The notes: generated from the letters alone by a model not told the origin. A DNA stretch of 64,000 bases from Escherichia coli (GCF_024298765.1 NZ_CP101210.1); one strand, 5' to 3'; positions 23,571 to 50,317 are shown, counted from the stretch's first letter. Made by a program: numbers and translations.

Positions 23571-24866
23571 TTAATTTTTCATTGCTTCGTTATGGGGCAT
23601 GGTTGGGGCAAACTCGCTTAACTGTGTATTTAACAAAGCTACCTGTGCATTATTGTTTTCAGACATCCATTTTCCGTATACCTGAAATACCATTTGCGCA
23701 TCTGCATGGCCCATCTGGTTTGCTATAAATGCCGGGTTAGCACCAGCTGTCAGCGACCAGCAGGCATAAGTATGTCTCGACTGATATGATTTTCGATGGC
23801 GGAGTCCGGCACGTTTTATCGCTGCGTCCCACATCTGCCTTATTGAGTCAACGGTAAAATGGTCACCATAATTTTTTACTCTCGCTGACACTTCAGGTTG
23901 AAAAACAAAGGTGCATTTTTGTTTTTCTGTTCTGCCATACTCTCTGAGGTGAACATCAATGATATGCTCTTTGCTCAGTCTCGTTAATGTCATCTGACTC
24001 CGGAGAGCGTCGATTGCTGGCTTAATAAGATGAATGACCCGATTGGTTCCCGCCTGTGTTTTTGGTACCGTGAAACGGTCTTTTGCTAAATTTCTCCTGA
24101 TCATCATTGTTCCATTTTTCAGATCTATGTCCTCCCATCCAAGTGCACACAGCTCACCAGGGCGAACGCCAGTATAAACAGAAACACACCATAAATTTTT
24201 TGCTTGCTGATTTCTGCACGCATCGATAAGACGGATAAATTCCTCCCGCGAAAGAGGATCCGGAATGGTTCTTGATTCCTTTAATGGCGAGATCCCCTTA
24301 AACGGATTATCTGGCAGGTAACCGTTATCAACACCAAACTGGAACACGGCGTTAAGATTTGTCATGTAATTATTTACAGTTACAGCCGATCTCCCTGGTT
24401 GTGTAACAATATAGTTACTTTTGGGGATCTGGTATCCAGTCAGTAGCTCTTTACGAACCTCCAGTAATTTTTCTTTATTAATCGATGAGGCAAGATTTTT
24501 TTCACCGATTATGCTCAGGATATTTTTGATGACGGCACGGTATGTGTTGAGTGATGTTTTGGCGACTTCAGTTTCTTTCAGTGCCAGAAATTTTTCAGCC
24601 AGTTCTTTTATGGTTAAATCTTGTCGGGCCTCACCAAATTTTTCCAGATTGCGTGAGGAGGGAAACTGTTTTGCATAGTCGAAAACACCAGTTTTTATTG
24701 CGTAACAAACAGAGGAGCGTAGTTCACCTGCAACGCGCCTGTTTTTTGCTGTGTCAGGAACCCCCAGATTTTCCCTGACTCTTACGCCTTTATAAACAAA
24801 CCAGATACGTAATTTCCCTCCATGGTTTTCCACGCCTGTCGGATATTTCATTTCAACTTCTCTCAT
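23571..24866 (-). CDS. intQ: Phage tyrosine integrase (431 aa; possible alternative start at 24851)
   Basis: C-terminal catalytic region with RHTYACW...GH and tyrosine-recombinase R/H/Y spacing; gene ends at the host junction. Confidence 0.9.
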   Translation of the reverse strand: MREVEMKYPTGVENHGGKLRIWFVYKGVRVRENLGVPDTAKNRRVAGELRSSVCYAIKTGVFDYAKQFPSSRNLEKFGEARQDLTIKELAEKFLALKETEVAKTSLNTYRAVIKNILSIIGEKNLASSINKEKLLEVRKELLTGYQIPKSNYIVTQPGRSAVTVNNYMTNLNAVFQFGVDNGYLPDNPFKGISPLKESRTIPDPLSREEFIRLIDACRNQQAKNLWCVSVYTGVRPGELCALGWEDIDLKNGTMMIRRNLAKDRFTVPKTQAGTNRVIHLIKPAIDALRSQMTLTRLSKEHIIDVHLREYGRTEKQKCTFVFQPEVSARVKNYGDHFTVDSIRQMWDAAIKRAGLRHRKSYQSRHTYACWSLTAGANPAFIANQMGHADAQMVFQVYGKWMSENNNAQVALLNTQLSEFAPTMPHNEAMKN

Positions 24867-32662: not shown

Positions 32663-33688
32663 ATGCACATTTTATCTGTTTCAAAAAAGGAAGTTGGAAG
32701 AGCTGGGGATAGATTAGTTTCTCAGTTTGGTACAGGTGAAAAATATAAAGAGGAAGATGTACAAATTCTTCATGAGTGGAGGATGTTGCATTTATATCCT
32801 TTAAGTAAAATACAATTTTATATGGAAAGAGAGGCTATTTCCTTAAACAAAAATGCGTTACTATCCTCTAGAATTAAGAGGATGCCTTCCATTGTTACTA
32901 AGCTTTCTAGATTTCCTGATATGAAGTTAAATAAGATGCAGGATCTTGGTGGGTGCCGGGCTATTTTAAATAATCTGGATCAAGTGTATGATTTAGTTAA
33001 TAAAATAAAATCATCTAAATTCTCACATGAACTAGTTAGAATGGATGATTACATGATAGACGTGAAAGATTCTGGTTATAGAAGCTTTCATATGGTCTAT
33101 TCATTCCAAAATAAAAAATTTCCATCTTTAAATGGGTTGCGCATTGAAATGCAAATAAGAACAGCTATTCAACATAGCTGGGCTACAGCAGTTGAAATGG
33201 TTGGTTTGTTTCGAAAGGAATCATTGAAATCTGGTTTTGGTGATGCAAGATGGCTTAGGTTTTTTGAATTGGTATCAGAGCTTTTTTATAAACTTGAGTA
33301 TGAAAAAGAACCATCTGGGAGTTATATAAAAATATCAGAAGAATTAAGTTATTTATCCGTCGAGTTGAATGTTTTCGATATATTAGCTGCTTACAATGCC
33401 GTAGTTAGCCATATTGAGGGTAGCAAAAAATATGATAAAGGACTTTGCATAATTGTTGTTGATACCATAAAGCGGAATATAAATATAAAGAGCTTCGAAA
33501 ATCACAATCATGCGAAGGCGGCAGAAGCTTATGTCGAGTCTGAAAAATACTGCGCGGAAAATAAAGGCTGTGAAGTGGCTATGGTTTCTGTTAGTTCAAT
33601 TAGTGAATTAAAAAATGCATATCCTGCTTACTTTTTAGATACGAAAACTTTTTTAAATTATCTCAGTAGGTATGTTTTTATAAAATAA
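32663..33688 (+). CDS. RelA/SpoT-homologue synthetase-domain protein (341 aa); candidate fused toxSAS toxin-antitoxin
   Basis: All four synthetase motifs present: RIKRMPSIVTK (RxKxxxSxxxK), DLGGCR (DxxGxR), GYRSFH, EMQIRTAIQHSWA (ExQIRT...W). About 130-aa C-terminal extension, no adjacent partner ORF, and much lower GC than the flanks. Confidence 0.75.
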   Translation: MHILSVSKKEVGRAGDRLVSQFGTGEKYKEEDVQILHEWRMLHLYPLSKIQFYMEREAISLNKNALLSSRIKRMPSIVTKLSRFPDMKLNKMQDLGGCRAILNNLDQVYDLVNKIKSSKFSHELVRMDDYMIDVKDSGYRSFHMVYSFQNKKFPSLNGLRIEMQIRTAIQHSWATAVEMVGLFRKESLKSGFGDARWLRFFELVSELFYKLEYEKEPSGSYIKISEELSYLSVELNVFDILAAYNAVVSHIEGSKKYDKGLCIIVVDTIKRNINIKSFENHNHAKAAEAYVESEKYCAENKGCEVAMVSVSSISELKNAYPAYFLDTKTFLNYLSRYVFIK

Positions 33689-43353: not shown

Positions 43354-43848
43354 ATGGATCGAGAGTTAAAAAATCTGACGCTGAATATCAGTCAACTGGC
43401 GGCACTGTCAGGTGTACATCGCCAGACTGCTGCGGCAAGGCTGCAAAATCTACCCGTTGCAGGGGGGCATGAAAGCAACCTCAAGCTTTATCGGGTGGTT
43501 GATATTGTGTCGGCATTTCTGGCATTACCACCGCCGGTTGCAGAAAGCGAAATGGATGCGCATGAGCGCAAAGCCTGGTATCAGTCTGAACGTGAGCGTC
43601 TTAAGTTCGAACAGGAAACGGCACAACTCATTCCGGCCAGTGATGTCAGACGGGAGTTTGCCATCTGGGCAAAAGCGGTCGTGCAGGTGCTGGAGACATT
43701 ACCGGATATTCTTGAACGTGACTGCGGTCTGCAGCCTGCCGCTGTGAGCCGTGTTCAGTCCATTATTGATGATCTGCGCGATCAGATAGCCCTGCGGGTG
43801 ACTGAAGCAGGTGCGGATGATGAGGAGGAATTACAGCAGGAGGAGTAA
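43354..43848 (+). CDS. Terminase small subunit (Nu1-like, 164 aa)
   Basis: N-terminal HTH (LTLNISQLAALSGVHRQTAAARLQ), acidic C-terminus, overlaps the large-terminase start. Confidence 0.8.
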   Translation: MDRELKNLTLNISQLAALSGVHRQTAAARLQNLPVAGGHESNLKLYRVVDIVSAFLALPPPVAESEMDAHERKAWYQSERERLKFEQETAQLIPASDVRREFAIWAKAVVQVLETLPDILERDCGLQPAAVSRVQSIIDDLRDQIALRVTEAGADDEEELQQEE

Positions 43849-45950
43849 TGCTGAATCAGGAAACCGCAAAGGCAGCACGAACCGATTCAGGTTATATCCT
43901 TCGCGCACCGAGACGAATGCGGGTTGCTGATGCCGTTGCTCAGTATATGCGGGTGCCCCTGGGGGCAGGGAACTCAGTCCCGTGGGATCCGCTGGTGGCA
44001 CCGTATGTTATTGAGCCGATGAACTGCCTGGCCTCGCGTGAATACGACGCAGTGATATTTGTTGGCCCGGCACGAACCGGCAAGACTATCGGCCTGATTG
44101 ACGGCTGGGTGATTTACAACGTGATTTGCGATCCTGCTGATATGCTGATCATTCAGATGACGGAGGAAAAAGCCCGCGAACACTCCAAAAAACGACTCGC
44201 CAGAACGTTTCGCGTCAGCCCGGAAGTGGTCAGTCGCCTGAGTCCGAACAAAAATGACAACAACGTTTATGACAGAACATTCCTTGCTGGTAACTACCTG
44301 AAAATCGGCTGGCCGTCAGTCAATATCATGTCCTCATCAGATTATAAATGCGTCGCGCTGACGGATTATGACCGTTTTCCGGAAGATATTGATGGCGAGG
44401 GGGATGCTTTCTCTCTTGCCTCAAAACGTACCACAACATTTATGTCCAGTGGTATGACGCTGGTGGAGAGTTCCCCCGGCAGGGATGTGAAGGATGTGAA
44501 ATGGCGACGGACTTCACCGCATGAGGCTCCACCAACCACGGGGATACTGTCGCTCTATAACCGTGGTGATCGCCGTCGCTGGTACTGGCCCTGTCCATAC
44601 TGTGGTGAGTATTTTCAGCCCTGCGGCGATGTGGTTGCTGGTTTCCGTGATATTGCCGATCCCGTGCTGGCAAGTGAGGCGGCTTATATTCAGTGTCCTT
44701 CCTGTTCAGGACGGATTATGCCTGAACAAAAACGTGAGCTGAACGGACGTGGGGTCTGGTTGCGGGATGGTGAATCCATCAATGCGGATGGCAGTCGTTA
44801 TGGTGATCCCCGACGCTCACGTATTGCGTCATTCTGGATGGAGGGGCCGGCAGCTGCTTACCAGACACTCTCGCAACTCGTTTACAAACTGCTTACTGCA
44901 GAACAGGAATACGAGACAACCGGAAGTGAAGAAACACTCAAGACGGTTATCAATACCGACTGGGGATTACCTTATCTTCCCCGCGCCAGCATGGAGCAAC
45001 GAAAAAGTGAACTGCTTGAGCAGCGGGCAGAGCCAGTTCCTTCCCGCAGTGTGCCGGATGGCGTTAATTTCCTTGTGGCGACAGTGGATGTGCAGGCGGG
45101 ACGTCATCGCCGTTTTGTGGTTCAGGTAACGGGCTATGGCAGCCGTGGCGAACGCTGGATTATTGATCGTTACAACATCACGCAGTCATTGCGCGGTGAC
45201 AGCGACGGGGAGAGCCAGCGAATTGATCCGGCCAGCTATCCGGAAGACTGGGATGTCCTGCTGACGGATGTTTTTCATAAAAGCTGGCCGCTGGCCTCCG
45301 ATCCTTCTCAACAAATGCGACTGATGGCAATGGCGGTGGACTCCGGCGGTGAAGACGGGGTCACTGATAATGCCTATAAATTCTGGCGTCGTTGCCGTCG
45401 TGATGGCCTTGGTAAACGTATTTACCTGTTTAAGGGCGACAGCATCCGGCGCGCAAAACTGATCACCCGTACATTCCCTGATAACACCGGACGAACGGGC
45501 CGACGGGCGCAGGCCGCAGGTGATGTGCCGCTCTGGCTTCTTCAGACGGATGCACTGAAAGACCGGGTGAATAACGCGTTATGGCGTGACTCGCCAGGTC
45601 CCGGCTATGTGCATTTCCCTGACTGGCTGGGGAGCTGGTTTTACGACGAACTGACGTATGAAGAGCGGAGCAGTGACGGGAAATGGAGTAAGCCAGGTCG
45701 CGGTGCCAACGAAGCTTTTGACCTGATGGTGTATGCCGAGGCTCTGGTCATTCTGCATGGATACGAAAAGATCCGCTGGCCGGATGCACCGGAGTGGGCG
45801 AGCCGGGAAACCTGGCTGGAGTGTGTCCCGGACAGTACCGAACCGTCACCCACACCGGAACCGGTATCCACGCCTGTTAAAAAACAAAAACGGAAGAAAA
45901 CAGTAACTGACGATGTTAACCCCTGGCTGACTTCCGGAGGATGGTTATGA
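43848..45950 (+). CDS. Terminase large subunit (gpA-like, 700 aa)
   Basis: Walker A-like VGPARTGKT; size and position after Nu1. Confidence 0.9.
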   Translation: MLNQETAKAARTDSGYILRAPRRMRVADAVAQYMRVPLGAGNSVPWDPLVAPYVIEPMNCLASREYDAVIFVGPARTGKTIGLIDGWVIYNVICDPADMLIIQMTEEKAREHSKKRLARTFRVSPEVVSRLSPNKNDNNVYDRTFLAGNYLKIGWPSVNIMSSSDYKCVALTDYDRFPEDIDGEGDAFSLASKRTTTFMSSGMTLVESSPGRDVKDVKWRRTSPHEAPPTTGILSLYNRGDRRRWYWPCPYCGEYFQPCGDVVAGFRDIADPVLASEAAYIQCPSCSGRIMPEQKRELNGRGVWLRDGESINADGSRYGDPRRSRIASFWMEGPAAAYQTLSQLVYKLLTAEQEYETTGSEETLKTVINTDWGLPYLPRASMEQRKSELLEQRAEPVPSRSVPDGVNFLVATVDVQAGRHRRFVVQVTGYGSRGERWIIDRYNITQSLRGDSDGESQRIDPASYPEDWDVLLTDVFHKSWPLASDPSQQMRLMAMAVDSGGEDGVTDNAYKFWRRCRRDGLGKRIYLFKGDSIRRAKLITRTFPDNTGRTGRRAQAAGDVPLWLLQTDALKDRVNNALWRDSPGPGYVHFPDWLGSWFYDELTYEERSSDGKWSKPGRGANEAFDLMVYAEALVILHGYEKIRWPDAPEWASRETWLECVPDSTEPSPTPEPVSTPVKKQKRKKTVTDDVNPWLTSGGWL

Positions 45951-46159
45951 ATCAGAATGATATTGAAGCCATGATTCAGCGTTATACGGAAGCTGAAATG
46001 GCGGTGCTGGACGGAAAATCCGTCACTTTTAATGGTCAGCAGATGACCATGGAAAACTTATCTGAGATCCGGCAGGGGCGGCAGGAGTGGGAGCGCCGCC
46101 TTGCGGCTCTGATTACACGACGACGGGGGCATCCCGGGTACCGGCTGGCGAGGTTCTGA
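45941..46159 (+). CDS. Head-tail joining protein (gpW-like, 72 aa)
   Basis: Small ORF between terminase and portal, overlapping both. Confidence 0.6.
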   Translation: MVMNQNDIEAMIQRYTEAEMAVLDGKSVTFNGQQMTMENLSEIRQGRQEWERRLAALITRRRGHPGYRLARF

Positions 46160-47667
46160 TGGCAATTCTTGATGATGTGATTGGCGTTTTTTCACCAGGA
46201 TGGAAAGCGGCAAGGCTGCGTTCCCGAGCGGTGATCCAGGCTTATGAGGCCGTAAAAACGACGCGGACACACAAAGCCCGACGGGAGAACCGAACTGCCG
46301 ACCAGTTAAGCCAGTACGGGGCCGTGTCGTTACGTGAGCAGGCCCGTTACCTTGATAACAACCACGATCTGGTCATTGGTGTATTTGACAAGCTGGAAGA
46401 ACGGGTGGTGGGGAAAAACGGGATTATTGTCGAGCCACATCCGGTATTACGCAATGGTGCCATTGCCCGTGACTTGGCAGCGGAGATACGTACCCGATGG
46501 AGTGAATGGTCTGTCAGTCCGGAAGTCACCGGGCAGTTTACCCGTCCGATGCTGGAACGTCTGATGCTGCGTACCTGGCTGCGCGATGGTGAGGTGTTTG
46601 CCCAGATGGTTTCCGGGCGCATAAACAGCCTGACGCCTTCTGCCGGTGTTCATTTCTGGCTGGAGGCGCTCGAGCCGGACTTTATTCCCATGACCAGTGA
46701 TGAGAGCAACAGGCTGAATCAGGGCGTGTTTGTTGATGACTGGGGGCGTCCCGAAAAATATCTGGTGTATAAAAGTCGTCCTGTATCCGGACGGCAGATG
46801 GAAACCAAAGAAGTGGATGCAGAGCGAATGCTGCATCTTAAATTTGTTCGCCGTCTGCACCAGATGCGCGGGACGTCTTTATTGTCCGGTGTGCTGATCC
46901 GCCTCAGCGCCCTGAAAGAGTATGAAGATTCTGAGCTGACTGCAGCAAGGATCGCCGCTGCTCTGGGGATGTACATCCGGAAAGGCGACGGACAGAGCTA
47001 TGAAACGGATGGTAATGACAGCAAGGAGAATGAACGCGAGCTTACCATTCAGCCAGGCATTATTTACGACGATCTGAAACCCGGCGAAGAAATCGGAATG
47101 GTGAAGTCGGATCGTCCCAATCCTAACCTTGAAACTTTTCGTAATGGTCAGTTGCGTGCCGTGGCGGCGGGCAGTCGTCTGAGTTTTTCCAGTACGGCAC
47201 GCAACTATAACGGCACTTACAGCGCCCAGCGTCAGGAACTGGTTGAGTCTACTGATGGCTACCTGATCCTGCAGGACTGGTTTATTGGTGCCGTCACCCG
47301 CCCGATGTATCGTGCATGGCTGAAACAGGCTGTGGCATCCGGTGTTATCAGGCTACCCCGCGATCTTGACCGTTCTTCACTGTATACCGCGGTGTATTCC
47401 GGACCAGTGATGCCGTGGATTGACCCTGTTAAGGAGGCTGAGGCCTGGAAAATCCAGATTCGTGGTGGAGCGGCGACAGAATCAGACTGGGTACGTGCTG
47501 GTGGTCGTAATCCGGATGATGTCAAACGTCGGCGCAAGGCCGAAATTGATGAAAACCGCAAGCTGGATCTGGTATTTGATACCGATCCGGCCAGTGATAA
47601 AGGAGGCAGCAGTGCCGCAACGAAACGACAGGAGCCGCAGCACACCGACGACCAGTCCGAAGAATAA
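46159..47667 (+). CDS. Portal protein (gpB-like, 502 aa)
   Basis: ATG overlaps the gpW stop; size and position typical of a lambda-like portal. Confidence 0.85.
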   Translation: MAILDDVIGVFSPGWKAARLRSRAVIQAYEAVKTTRTHKARRENRTADQLSQYGAVSLREQARYLDNNHDLVIGVFDKLEERVVGKNGIIVEPHPVLRNGAIARDLAAEIRTRWSEWSVSPEVTGQFTRPMLERLMLRTWLRDGEVFAQMVSGRINSLTPSAGVHFWLEALEPDFIPMTSDESNRLNQGVFVDDWGRPEKYLVYKSRPVSGRQMETKEVDAERMLHLKFVRRLHQMRGTSLLSGVLIRLSALKEYEDSELTAARIAAALGMYIRKGDGQSYETDGNDSKENERELTIQPGIIYDDLKPGEEIGMVKSDRPNPNLETFRNGQLRAVAAGSRLSFSSTARNYNGTYSAQRQELVESTDGYLILQDWFIGAVTRPMYRAWLKQAVASGVIRLPRDLDRSSLYTAVYSGPVMPWIDPVKEAEAWKIQIRGGAATESDWVRAGGRNPDDVKRRRKAEIDENRKLDLVFDTDPASDKGGSSAATKRQEPQHTDDQSEE

Positions 47668-47680
47668 TTCCTGGTTCAGG

Positions 47681-49639
47681 ATGCAGGCTGGTCACCAGAG
47701 TGACGCGGATATTTATATTTATGACGAGATTGGTTTCTGGGGTGTTACAGCGAAGCAGTTTATCAGTGATCTGAATGCACTGGGCGATATCACCCACATT
47801 AATCTCCATATTAATTCACCGGGTGGCGATGTCTTTGAAGGCATCGCCATTTTTAATGCGCTGAAAACACATGGAGCGTCCATTACCGTTTATGTCGACG
47901 GTGTGGCGGCGTCAATGGCGTCGGTCATTGCGATGGTGGGAAACCCGGTCATTATGCCGGAAAACACTTTCATGATGATTCATAAACCATTTGGCTTTAC
48001 GGGCGGTGATGCGGAGGACATGCGCACCTATGCCGACCTGCTCGATAAAGTTGAGGCGGTTCTGTTACCCGCTTATGCACAGAAAACCGGGAAAACCACC
48101 GATGAAATTGCTGCCATGCTGGCGGATGAGACCTGGATGTCCGGTGCCGAATGTCTGGCACATGGATTTGCTGATCAGGTAACGCCAGCCGTTAAGGCAA
48201 TGGCATGTATTCAGTCAAAACGTACAGAGGAATTTAAAAAGATGCCGGAATCCATTCGAAACATGATTACTCCGCCACGCAACAGTGCTCCACGCGTACA
48301 GGATGATGAACCTGCAGCCTCCCGGACGCCAGTGCAGGCAGCAGCACCCGTGGTGGATGAAAACAGTATCCGTGCGCAGGTACTGGCAGAGCAAAAAGCG
48401 CGTGTAAACGGTATTAATGATCTGTTTGCCATGTTTGGCGGGCGTTATCAGACGCTGCAGGCTCAGTGTCTTGCCGATCCTGAATGTTCGCTGGAGCAGG
48501 CCCGCGAAAAGCTGTTGAACGAGATGGGGCGCGAGTCCACGCCATCCAATAAAAATACCCCGGCTCATATTTATGCCGGTAACGGTAATTTTGTGGGGGA
48601 CGGGATCCGCCAGGCGCTGATGGCGCGTGCCGGATTTGAAAAAACCGAACGTGATAATGTCTACAACGGGATGACCCTGCGTGAATATGCCCGTATGTCA
48701 CTGACTGAACGGGGTATTGGGGTTTCCAGTTATAACCCGATGCAGATGGTCGGTGCGGCGTTCACACACAGTACGTCTGACTTCGGTAATATTCTGCTGG
48801 ATGTTGCGAACAAAGCCATTCTGCAGGGCTGGGAAGATGCTCCTGAAACCTATGAACAGTGGACGCGGAAAGGTCAGTTGTCTGATTTTAAAATTGCCCA
48901 TCGTGTGGGTATGGGGGGCTTCAGTGCTCTGCGTCAGGTGCGTGAAGGGGCGGAATATAAATACGTCACCACCGGAGATAAACAGGCCACTATTGCACTG
49001 GCGACCTATGGCGAGCTGTTCAGTATCACCCGTCAGGCCATTATCAATGATGATCTGAATATGCTGACCGATGTCCCGATGAAGCTGGGCCGTGCGGCGA
49101 AATCCACCATTGCCGATCTGGTTTATGCCATTCTGACGTCTAACCCGAAAATCTCCACAGATAATGTAAGTCTGTTCGATAAAGCGAAACATGCAAACGT
49201 ACTGGAGAGCGCTGCAATGGACGTGGCATCGCTGGATAAAGCCCGCCAGTTGATGCGCGTTCAGAAAGAGGGGGAGCGTCATCTGAATATTCGTCCTGCG
49301 TTCGTACTGGTACCGACGGCGATGGAGTCTGTTGCTAACCAGGTCATTCGCTCCTCAAGTGTCAAGGGGGCTGACATTAACGCCGGTATTATTAACCCGG
49401 TGAAAGATTTTGCGACCGTTATTGCAGAGCCTCGTCTTGATGATAACAGCCAGACCACCTTCTACCTGGCTGCGTCCAAAGGCTCCGATACGATTGAAGT
49501 GGCTTATCTCAACGGTGTGGATACGCCATATATTGATCAGATGGAGGGCTTCAGTGTGGATGGCGTGACAACGAAAGTGCGTATTGACGCCGGTGTCGCG
49601 CCAGTTGATCACCGCGGTCTGGTGAAATGTACGGCGTAA
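47681..49639 (+). CDS. Fused prohead protease (ClpP/S49-like) and HK97-fold major capsid protein (652 aa)
   Basis: N-terminal third has ClpP-like features (INSPGGDVFEGIAIFNAL, MASVIAMVGNP); C-terminal two-thirds resembles a major capsid protein. Confidence 0.78.
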   Translation: MQAGHQSDADIYIYDEIGFWGVTAKQFISDLNALGDITHINLHINSPGGDVFEGIAIFNALKTHGASITVYVDGVAASMASVIAMVGNPVIMPENTFMMIHKPFGFTGGDAEDMRTYADLLDKVEAVLLPAYAQKTGKTTDEIAAMLADETWMSGAECLAHGFADQVTPAVKAMACIQSKRTEEFKKMPESIRNMITPPRNSAPRVQDDEPAASRTPVQAAAPVVDENSIRAQVLAEQKARVNGINDLFAMFGGRYQTLQAQCLADPECSLEQAREKLLNEMGRESTPSNKNTPAHIYAGNGNFVGDGIRQALMARAGFEKTERDNVYNGMTLREYARMSLTERGIGVSSYNPMQMVGAAFTHSTSDFGNILLDVANKAILQGWEDAPETYEQWTRKGQLSDFKIAHRVGMGGFSALRQVREGAEYKYVTTGDKQATIALATYGELFSITRQAIINDDLNMLTDVPMKLGRAAKSTIADLVYAILTSNPKISTDNVSLFDKAKHANVLESAAMDVASLDKARQLMRVQKEGERHLNIRPAFVLVPTAMESVANQVIRSSSVKGADINAGIINPVKDFATVIAEPRLDDNSQTTFYLAASKGSDTIEVAYLNGVDTPYIDQMEGFSVDGVTTKVRIDAGVAPVDHRGLVKCTA

Positions 49640-49725
49640 ACGTCGCAGACAACAACTCTGATGGCCCGTAAGGGCTTTTTTTGTACCTGAAATCAGCCTC
49701 TGAACGGGGCTGTGCGGAGACAGTT

Positions 49726-50049
49726 ATGGCAAAGAATTTTGTAGAAGAAGGAAAAACGGTGGCGATTGTTGCCAGTGCAGCCATCAGCAGCGGAGATCTG
49801 GTGCAGGTGGGTGATGTTTTTGCGGTGGCGCTGACCGATATTCCACAGGGTGAAACAGGCGACGGCATGACCGAAGGTGTGTTTATCCTGCCTAAACTGA
49901 AAACGGATGACATGAAAACGGGTAAGAAGGTTTATCTGAAGTCCGGAAAAGTTCAGCTGACTAACAGCGGCTCTGATCCGCTGGTCGGGGTTGTCTGGGC
50001 AGATGCCGGAACCAGTGCAGAAGAAGTGCCGGTAAAACTCAATGTCTGA
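49726..50049 (+). CDS. Small head protein (decoration or head-completion candidate, 107 aa)
   Basis: GGAG RBS; position after the capsid gene. Confidence 0.5.
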   Translation: MAKNFVEEGKTVAIVASAAISSGDLVQVGDVFAVALTDIPQGETGDGMTEGVFILPKLKTDDMKTGKKVYLKSGKVQLTNSGSDPLVGVVWADAGTSAEEVPVKLNV

Positions 50050-50317
50050 TCCCTTTTCCCGGCTGGCAGCGCGTATGGATGCGATCACGGTCAGAAAGAT
50101 GGGAAAGACAGCCTCGATTAATGATGTCGATATGGCTGTGATCCCGGACGAAACACTTGCAGAGCTGAATGCTCTGTCCGGACCTGCGGTCTCTCTGGTG
50201 GTGTTTTCTTCGGGATACCGCCCACGGCGCGGGGATCGCGTTGTTTATGACGGACAACAATGGACGGTCACACGGCATGAACGTTTTAACGGTAAGCCAA
50301 TGATCTTTATTGAGTAA
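50042..50317 (+). CDS. Head-tail joining protein candidate (FII-like, 91 aa)
   Basis: Position between the head genes and the gpZ-like gene. Confidence 0.45.
   Translation: MSDPFSRLAARMDAITVRKMGKTASINDVDMAVIPDETLAELNALSGPAVSLVVFSSGYRPRRGDRVVYDGQQWTVTRHERFNGKPMIFIE

Follow-up and report, generated by a model that had tools for sequence, protein, structure and literature searches.

A single gene between the portal and head decoration genes of the prophage analysed here encodes a ClpP-fold protease, a helical scaffold-like segment and an HK97-fold major capsid domain in one polypeptide. The gene is very probably a standard member of a ClpP-like protease/capsid fusion family that is already known and very common. 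It lies in the window, a 64,000-nucleotide stretch of an Escherichia coli chromosome, and matches the curated model of that family over almost its entire length. The ground for novelty is confined to mechanism, the gene itself being known.

One reading frame between portal and decoration genes

Translated from ATG 47681, the gene encodes 652 residues (70.8 kDa) with no internal stop codons before the TAA at 49637-49639, and the frame is open on the plus strand from 47420 onward. The initial annotation had described protease and capsid as one 652-aa polypeptide, and the uninterrupted frame bears this out. No overlooked stop or frameshift splitting the gene was found; plaque-forming phages carry it as one annotated ORF too, as do, at coverage of at least 80%, 2,002 E. 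coli genomes.

The choice of start codon is ambiguous. A scan for Shine-Dalgarno motifs identified AAGGAGG followed by a 5-nt spacer and an in-frame GTG at 47612, from which a precursor of 675 aa and 73.5 kDa would be made, overlapping the 3' end of the portal gene by 56 nt. This is the start used by RefSeq/PGAP, whereas the annotators of mEp460 and cdtI chose the ATG. The Shine-Dalgarno motif and GTG are kept in-frame, as AAGGAGG-N6-GTG, in phage 1720a-02, although the gene there is only 77.7% identical. The ATG at 47681 has only an abutting AGG with zero spacer. Judged from these signals, the GTG is at least as likely a start as the ATG.

The portal gene ends at 47667, which leaves no room for a separate protease or scaffold gene before the capsid. 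Between that end and the start of the decoration gene at 49726, no other gene of meaningful size was found on the plus strand, so that the earlier claim of a head module with no free-standing protease or scaffold gene between portal and capsid was upheld. Directly 3' of the fusion gene there is a terminator-like hairpin, the equivalent of which in mEp460 is annotated as a rho-independent terminator. As a matter of speculation, it might hold expression of the genes beyond it below that of the capsid gene. The features are collected in Table 1.

Table 1. Features of the fusion gene and its surroundings, with positions counted from the first letter of the window
Feature	Position	Strand	Basis
Large terminase subunit, lambda gpA type	43848..45950	+	PF05876, PF20454
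Portal protein, lambda family, 503 aa; directly upstream of fusion gene	46159..47667	+	PF05136 (E=5e-82), RefSeq
Alternative start: Shine-Dalgarno AAGGAGG (47600-47606) and GTG (47612-47614)	47600..47614	+	Direct read, SD scan, RefSeq/PGAP
Fusion gene, ClpP-like prohead protease/scaffold-like/major capsid protein	47681..49639	+	Single ORF, NF045540, PHROG 133
ClpP-fold (MEROPS S14-like) serine protease domain, aa ~8-170	47702..48190	+	Pfam CLP_protease, NF045542, Foldseek
Pro/Ala/Gln-rich linker, indel-rich and poorly conserved, aa ~171-226	48191..48358	+	pLDDT, family alignment
Helical scaffold-like segment, aa ~227-351	48359..48733	+	Helices in both models
HK97-fold major capsid domain, Mu gpT/Phage_capsid_4 type, aa ~352-652, 32.7 kDa	48734..49636	+	Pfam, Foldseek, profile search
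Terminator-like GC hairpin GGCCCGTAAGGGC, then T run; directly 3' of fusion gene	49663..49686	+	Terminator scan
Head decoration/cement protein (DUF2190/Phage_cement_2); directly downstream	49726..50049	+	PF09956 (E=1.3e-20), PHROG 122 'head decoration' (E=1.4e-46)

The protease domain

Pfam CLP_protease matched aa 23-168 of the fusion protein with E=4.4e-36, and the NCBIfam model for a ClpP-related head maturation protease (NF045542) matched aa 9-167 with 215.8 bits against a cutoff of 120. The full-length protein was modelled as a monomer with AlphaFold2 from an input of 66 diverse homologues. The model has a mean pLDDT of 88 and contains a confident α/β domain at aa ~8-170. Used as a Foldseek query, it returned ClpP matches only, namely solved ClpP structures with a target-normalised TM of ~0.8 and 22-30% identity. 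A protease fold in the N-terminal region was thus detected by Pfam, NCBIfam and Foldseek alike.

Alignment with E. coli ClpP places its S111, H136 and D185 at S78, H101 and E150 of the fusion protein (codons 47912-47914, 47981-47983 and 48128-48130, respectively). Every one of 66 homologues, at 34-54% identity, retains Ser78 and His101. Position 150, at which canonical ClpP has Asp, is Glu in 57 of the 66 and Asp in five; Asp149 is adjacent. ClpP motifs beside the catalytic residues are also kept across these homologues, including GG at 48-49 and M99-x-H101-x-P103. The invariance of Ser78 and His101 together with the kept motifs is the pattern expected for an active enzyme.

An assignment to S49, the lambda gpC-like class, was dropped in favour of an S14-like one. 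Pfam S49 was absent at E<=0.01, and the sole S49-related signal came from TIGR00706 (SppA_dom), at 22.3 bits against a cutoff of 155. The domain had initially been called ClpP/S49-like; the ClpP fold, of S14 type with Ser78 and His101, was confirmed, and the S49 part did not hold. All models of cellular ClpP equivalogs scored far below cutoff (TIGR00493, 59.7 bits against 308.6). The domain shares the ClpP fold without being an orthologue of cellular ClpP.

The linker, the helical segment and the capsid domain

The linker that follows the protease domain shows the minimum of conservation and the maximum of gaps and insertions in the family alignment, and pLDDT falls below 50 at aa 174-178 and 200-223. 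It is a candidate site for release of the protease. Beyond it, both structure models place helices at 227-250, 257-265, 271-285, 304-316 and 333-343, with a flexible stretch at aa ~286-303. The homology to stand-alone capsid proteins of the Mu-gpT type does not extend into this part. The ~125-aa helical segment is an extra N-terminal extension, positioned like the delta (scaffold) domain of HK97, and by analogy aa ~227-351 would have a scaffold function.

The C-terminal domain is mixed α/β in the full-length model. Since Foldseek with that model gave ClpP matches only, aa 225-652 were modelled separately for a test of the capsid fold (pLDDT 93). This model matched HK97-fold capsids and encapsulins with probability 1.00, among them phiXacJX1 (9lbm), HK97 Head II (2ft1) and D3 (9ous). 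In Pfam, Phage_capsid_4 (PF25209) covered aa 352-649 with E=7.4e-55 and 187.5 bits against a cutoff of 27, and Mu-like_gpT (PF10124) gave a partial match of 33.5 bits against 20.1. A profile search of the PDB was run with the alignment trimmed to the C-terminal 367 residues, since the protease columns of full-length homologues drew mainly ClpP matches. It retrieved the 'Mu GpT domain' capsids 8rkc/8rkx (E=1.8e-13) and 9jod (1.8e-10). The capsid proteins of 8rkc and 9jod are 302-305 aa long and align from near aa ~375 of the fusion protein, which indicates a capsid core of ~300 aa. The initial annotation had given the C-terminal two-thirds to an HK97-fold capsid. The fold was correct, but the capsid domain takes up only ~300 aa, the rest being ~56 aa of linker and ~125 aa of helical segment.

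A known and widespread family

The fusion protein matches NCBIfam NF045540 (scaf_prot_MCP1), named 'ClpP-like prohead protease/major capsid protein fusion protein', with 985.2 bits against a cutoff of 475; aa 9-651 align to positions 2-651 of the 652-position model. PHROG 133 covers aa 1-652. The ClpP-related protease, the HK97-fold capsid, the single ORF and the position after the portal, as expected of NF045540, are likewise present. The protein differs from mEp460 gp005 at two of 652 residues and from RefSeq WP_001360054.1 at none over these residues. PcdtI gp05 of phage cdtI is another member. A difference of only two residues from a protein of a plaque-forming phage fits a capsid gene that is functional, and the fusion gene marks the prophage head module as one of the mEp460/cdtI type.

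At the DNA level, the gene is at least 98.6% identical to 16 phage records, including mEp460, cdtI, Ayreon, Tritos, phi458 and HannyBb, and ~77% identical to its counterpart in several Stx2-converting phages. Of 5,426 complete E. coli genomes, 2,124 (~40%) carry it, and there the PGAP product name is exactly that of the NF045540 fusion. A HMMER scan of 1.84 billion representative proteins gave 6,757 clusters at E<=1e-30. More than 100 representatives are full-length fusions of ~640-700 aa with 36-54% identity, and these make up the majority of the top 150 matches. Pfam analysis of nine homologues found Phage_capsid_4 in all nine and CLP_protease in all seven that lack an N-terminal truncation.

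Comparable fusions have been in the literature since at least 2017-2019. Klyczek et al. (2017) reported fused protease-capsid genes in several clusters of Arthrobacter phages, with a comparison to HK97 and lambda fusions (PMC5513430). In the Paracoccus virome (2019), proteins of ~700 aa joining ClpP (S14) to Mu-gpT were found in 34% of siphovirus prophages and read as protease-capsid gene fusions (PMC6536676). A 2022 announcement called protease-capsid fusions "common in small-genome siphoviruses" (PMC9671004). A gene of a curated, routinely annotated family that is carried by ~40% of complete E. coli genomes is ordinary, and given the age of the literature and a product already named by NCBIfam and PGAP, it has little value as a discovery. 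Its remaining value is practical.

Prophage context

Across 24 kb, the chromosome in the window is 100% identical to avian and poultry isolates. The prophage adjoins rspAB and carries dicB, ydfD, hokD, rem, ydfU, cspB/F/I, gnsB and related genes; its location and the dicB/ydfD/hokD-type gene set show it to be full-length and related to the Qin remnant of K-12. The avian-type E. coli carries it at the Qin site as an apparently intact lambdoid prophage of the mEp460/cdtI type.

The head genes run in the order terminase, small gene, portal, fusion and cement, as in mEp460, and the tail genes downstream are of lambda type (Z, U, a tube protein with a Big_2 domain, G, T and the tape measure). In a relative with 41% identity (locus L009), the head block comprises a Nu1-like small terminase, a GpA terminase, a small gene, a lambda-family portal, the fusion and Phage_cement_2; P2-like baseplate, PAAR and tail-fibre genes come next. 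Since the same head block also occurs beside a P2-like baseplate, the head module is a long-standing, coherent unit that combines with tails of different kinds, not a recent internal patchwork. The initial annotation had considered the head mosaic with respect to the lambda-like tail. Mosaicism of head against tail is supported by L009; nevertheless, the GpA terminase and the portal are also of the lambda family, and to that extent the claim is to be qualified.

Proposed maturation and alternative readings

By analogy with HK97 gp4/gp5, P2 gpO and lambda C/Nu3/E, the following maturation pathway is considered most likely. The whole precursor would polymerise on the portal to form the prohead, with the helical segment and the protease domain facing inward and the helical segment serving as a built-in scaffold, much like HK97 delta. 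Confinement would bring protease domains together and so activate them. Cuts would then fall in flexible regions, namely aa ~171-226 and perhaps also ~286-303, and degradation of the protease and scaffold parts would follow. The fragments would exit the shell, leaving a mature capsid protein of ~33-40 kDa, and the shell would expand on DNA packaging before decoration by Phage_cement_2. Fusion would thus deliver protease and scaffold into every prohead, making separate genes unneeded. In the literature searched on the fusion family, mEp460, cdtI and Gifsy-2, no experimental or biochemical data were found on cleavage sites, processing, stoichiometry, assembly or prohead structure.

ClpP usually takes the form of stacked heptamers, a tetradecameric barrel to which the ClpX/ClpA ATPases dock. 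If a T=7 shell is assumed, a prohead would hold ~415 protease domains and 415 scaffold segments, and such a number of protease copies would be very unlike the canonical heptameric ClpP barrel. Phages such as HK97 package far fewer protease copies. Each capsid subunit may carry its own ClpP-fold protease, perhaps translated from the GTG in the 3' end of the portal gene, in an arrangement or with a mode of activation that is new; this is put forward tentatively, as the less probable outcome.

The pathway would be different if an internal in-frame start supplied a protease-less scaffold-capsid protein as the bulk of the shell, so that few subunits carried the protease. Lambda C/Nu3 and herpesvirus UL26/UL26.5 have adopted such a nested-gene solution. 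An in-frame ATG is present at aa 188 (48242) with a GAGG 11 nt upstream, and protease-less homologues of 443-468 aa (P0165 and P0228) occur in databases. Nevertheless, this Shine-Dalgarno motif is weak and its spacing poor, conservation in the alignment is lowest where Met188 lies, and the scan found no strong internal Shine-Dalgarno motif with a start anywhere in the fusion gene. The short homologues also lend themselves to other explanations: P0165 has beside it a 201-aa ClpP gene called as a gene of its own, in a locus that looks degraded, and resembles a broken gene, while P0228 is preceded by only 35 nt on its 1.5-kb contig and resembles a truncated one. For the same reasons, the two were unconvincing as examples of an ancestral separate arrangement. 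An internal start is accordingly regarded as unlikely.

Still less probable is a dead ClpP-like relic that acts only as scaffold or chaperone, any cleavage being left to a host protease. The replacement of the canonical triad Asp by Glu150 would fit such a relic, but Glu can serve in place of Asp as the acidic residue of a triad, all 66 homologues down to 34% identity retain Ser78 and His101 with the flanking motifs kept, and the head module has no other protease gene. An artefact or pseudogene, in which a frameshift, deletion or sequencing error joined separate protease and capsid genes in this strain, deserves hardly any credence. Although a split version with a 201-aa ClpP and a 443-aa capsid exists elsewhere (locus L006), 28 phage records contain the gene as one unbroken ORF, several of them listing a laboratory E. 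coli strain as host, and so do the 2,002 E. coli genomes. Moreover, fused full-length homologues extend down to 36% identity, and NCBIfam has a curated model of the fusion. The artefact reading is refuted by NF045540, the phage records, the E. coli genomes and the fused homologues.

Comparison with known systems

The closest systems are the members of NF045540. The products of mEp460 gp005, cdtI and WP_001360054.1 have 99-100% protein identity and the same position between portal and DUF2190 genes; no difference was seen save the annotated start, the phage records giving 652 aa and RefSeq 675 aa. The sister family NF045541 (scaf_prot_MCP2) and PHROG 4523 embody the same architectural idea, and match the scaffold and capsid part of the fusion protein at aa 197-649 and aa 186-651, respectively. 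Fusions of these types have been described (PMC5513430, PMC9671004). The score for NF045541 was 400 against a cutoff of 525, which places the fusion protein outside that family. Neither model aligns to aa 1-185/196, and their N-terminal parts are therefore presumably different.

HK97 gp4/gp5 share with the fusion protein an HK97-fold capsid, an N-terminal helical extension at the delta position and the lack of a free-standing scaffold gene. In HK97, the delta domain is part of the capsid protein until a packaged protease removes it. By analogy, the extension of the fusion protein may likewise be cleaved inside the prohead by the phage protease. The capsid domains have diverged, with 11-16% identity between HK97 gp5 and the Mu-gpT-type capsid of the fusion in structural alignments. 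The HK97 protease, which has a herpesvirus-like fold, is encoded by a separate gene and belongs to another family, whereas that of the fusion protein has the ClpP fold and is covalently attached.

With lambda, the fusion locus shares a gpA-type terminase and a lambda-family portal upstream, together with protease and scaffold in one reading frame. The two proteases belong to the same broad ClpP/SppA clan. The initial annotation had set the fusion apart from the lambda C/Nu3/E arrangement, and the difference proved to extend to protein families. The lambda protease is S49 (Ser-Lys), whereas that of the fusion is S14-like with an invariant His; lambda capsid E and decoration D are separate proteins of unrelated families, in place of which the fusion locus has a Mu-gpT/Phage_capsid_4 capsid and Phage_cement_2. 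Lambda also has a nested Nu3, and a nested Nu3-like start is not evident in the fusion gene.

P2 gpO is a fusion of protease and scaffold in one polypeptide (PMC6893505). P2 gpO and Mu gpI/gpZ resemble the fusion protein in combining these two functions, and Mu gpT-type proteins are homologous to its capsid domain. In P2 and Mu, however, the capsid protein is encoded by a separate gene, whereas the fusion gene joins all three functions.

Translation start and 3' flank of the fusion gene

Translation of the fusion gene could begin at either of two codons within window 47600-47683. The upstream GTG is retained in phage 1720a-02, whose homologue is 77.7% identical, together with its Shine-Dalgarno sequence. 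Directly at the downstream ATG lies a short inverted repeat, TCCTGgttCAGGA (47669-47681).

On the 3' side, a rho-independent terminator is annotated in phage mEp460 at the site equivalent to the hairpin between the capsid fusion and decoration genes. The 91-aa ORF beyond the decoration gene is called a 'DNA breaking-rejoining protein' in RefSeq and an 'ATP-binding sugar transporter from pro-phage' in Pfam (PF13856), and it has a weak match to Phage_attach. Both names look like misnomers, and the product is more likely a head-tail attachment or connector protein.

Coordinates of the features discussed
Feature	Location	Strand	Remarks
Prophage	window ~23570-64000		integrase ~23571-24851; runs on beyond the window end
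RelA/SpoT-domain protein, 341 aa	window 32663-33688	+	prophage early region
Start candidate GTG	window 47612	+	perfect AAGGAGG Shine-Dalgarno; within 3' end of portal gene; RefSeq choice, 675 aa
Start candidate ATG	window 47681	+	no spaced Shine-Dalgarno; chosen by phage annotators, 652 aa
Terminator-like hairpin and T-run	window 49663-49686		directly 3' of capsid fusion gene, 5' of decoration gene
91-aa ORF	window 50042-50317	+	between decoration gene and gpZ-like gene
Split protease and capsid genes	L006 2411-4386		BBMQ01000056.1; 201-aa ClpP-like and 443-aa scaffold-capsid
Portal-protease-capsid ORF	L010 4001-7675		GCA_039193195.1 contig
Portal-protease-capsid ORF	proteins P0033/P0034		E. 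coli; 1135 aa
Head block with adjoining P2-like tail genes	L009 2845-15570		CP048878.1; Nu1-like, GpA terminase, small gene, lambda-family portal, fusion, cement protein
Locus with fused protease-capsid gene, 36% identical	L007 201-7342		Logan SRR24075715 contig

Split and extended versions

In the homologous locus L006, protease and capsid are encoded separately, with 39 nt between the two genes. No recognisable portal was found in this locus, which is probably a decaying prophage and not the ancestral unfused arrangement. In the opposite direction, some database entries hold portal, ClpP protease and capsid in a single ORF of 1,135-1,224 aa. Such ORFs could be real triple or quadruple fusions of a distant lineage, or they could be products of indel errors. 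The window's own fusion frame has no stop for 261 nt 5' of ATG 47681 and runs into the 3' end of the portal gene; one indel would therefore be enough to fuse the portal with the fusion gene.

The head module in other surroundings

The head module is a unit exchanged between differing tail types. In locus L009, the same head block as that of the window has P2-like neighbours: baseplate V, PAAR, Tail_P2_I and tail-fibre genes. In locus L007, an integrase, an AlpA-like regulator and a Prim-Pol/PriCT primase are followed immediately by the fused protease-capsid gene, a layout less like that of a phage than like that of a capsid-forming phage satellite (cf-PICI-like).

The resident prophage

The early region of the prophage holds a RelA/SpoT-domain gene in a stretch of low GC content (38% versus ~50% in the surroundings). 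With a match to PDC-S33, a candidate defence family of PADLOC (E = 5e-119), the product may act in defence as a toxin of the CapRel-like type. The prophage adjoins rspAB, carries dicB, ydfD, hokD, rem, ydfU, cspB/F/I, essD, rrrQ and gnsB, and has complete head and tail modules; it is lambdoid and represents a full-length relative of the Qin remnant in E. coli K-12.
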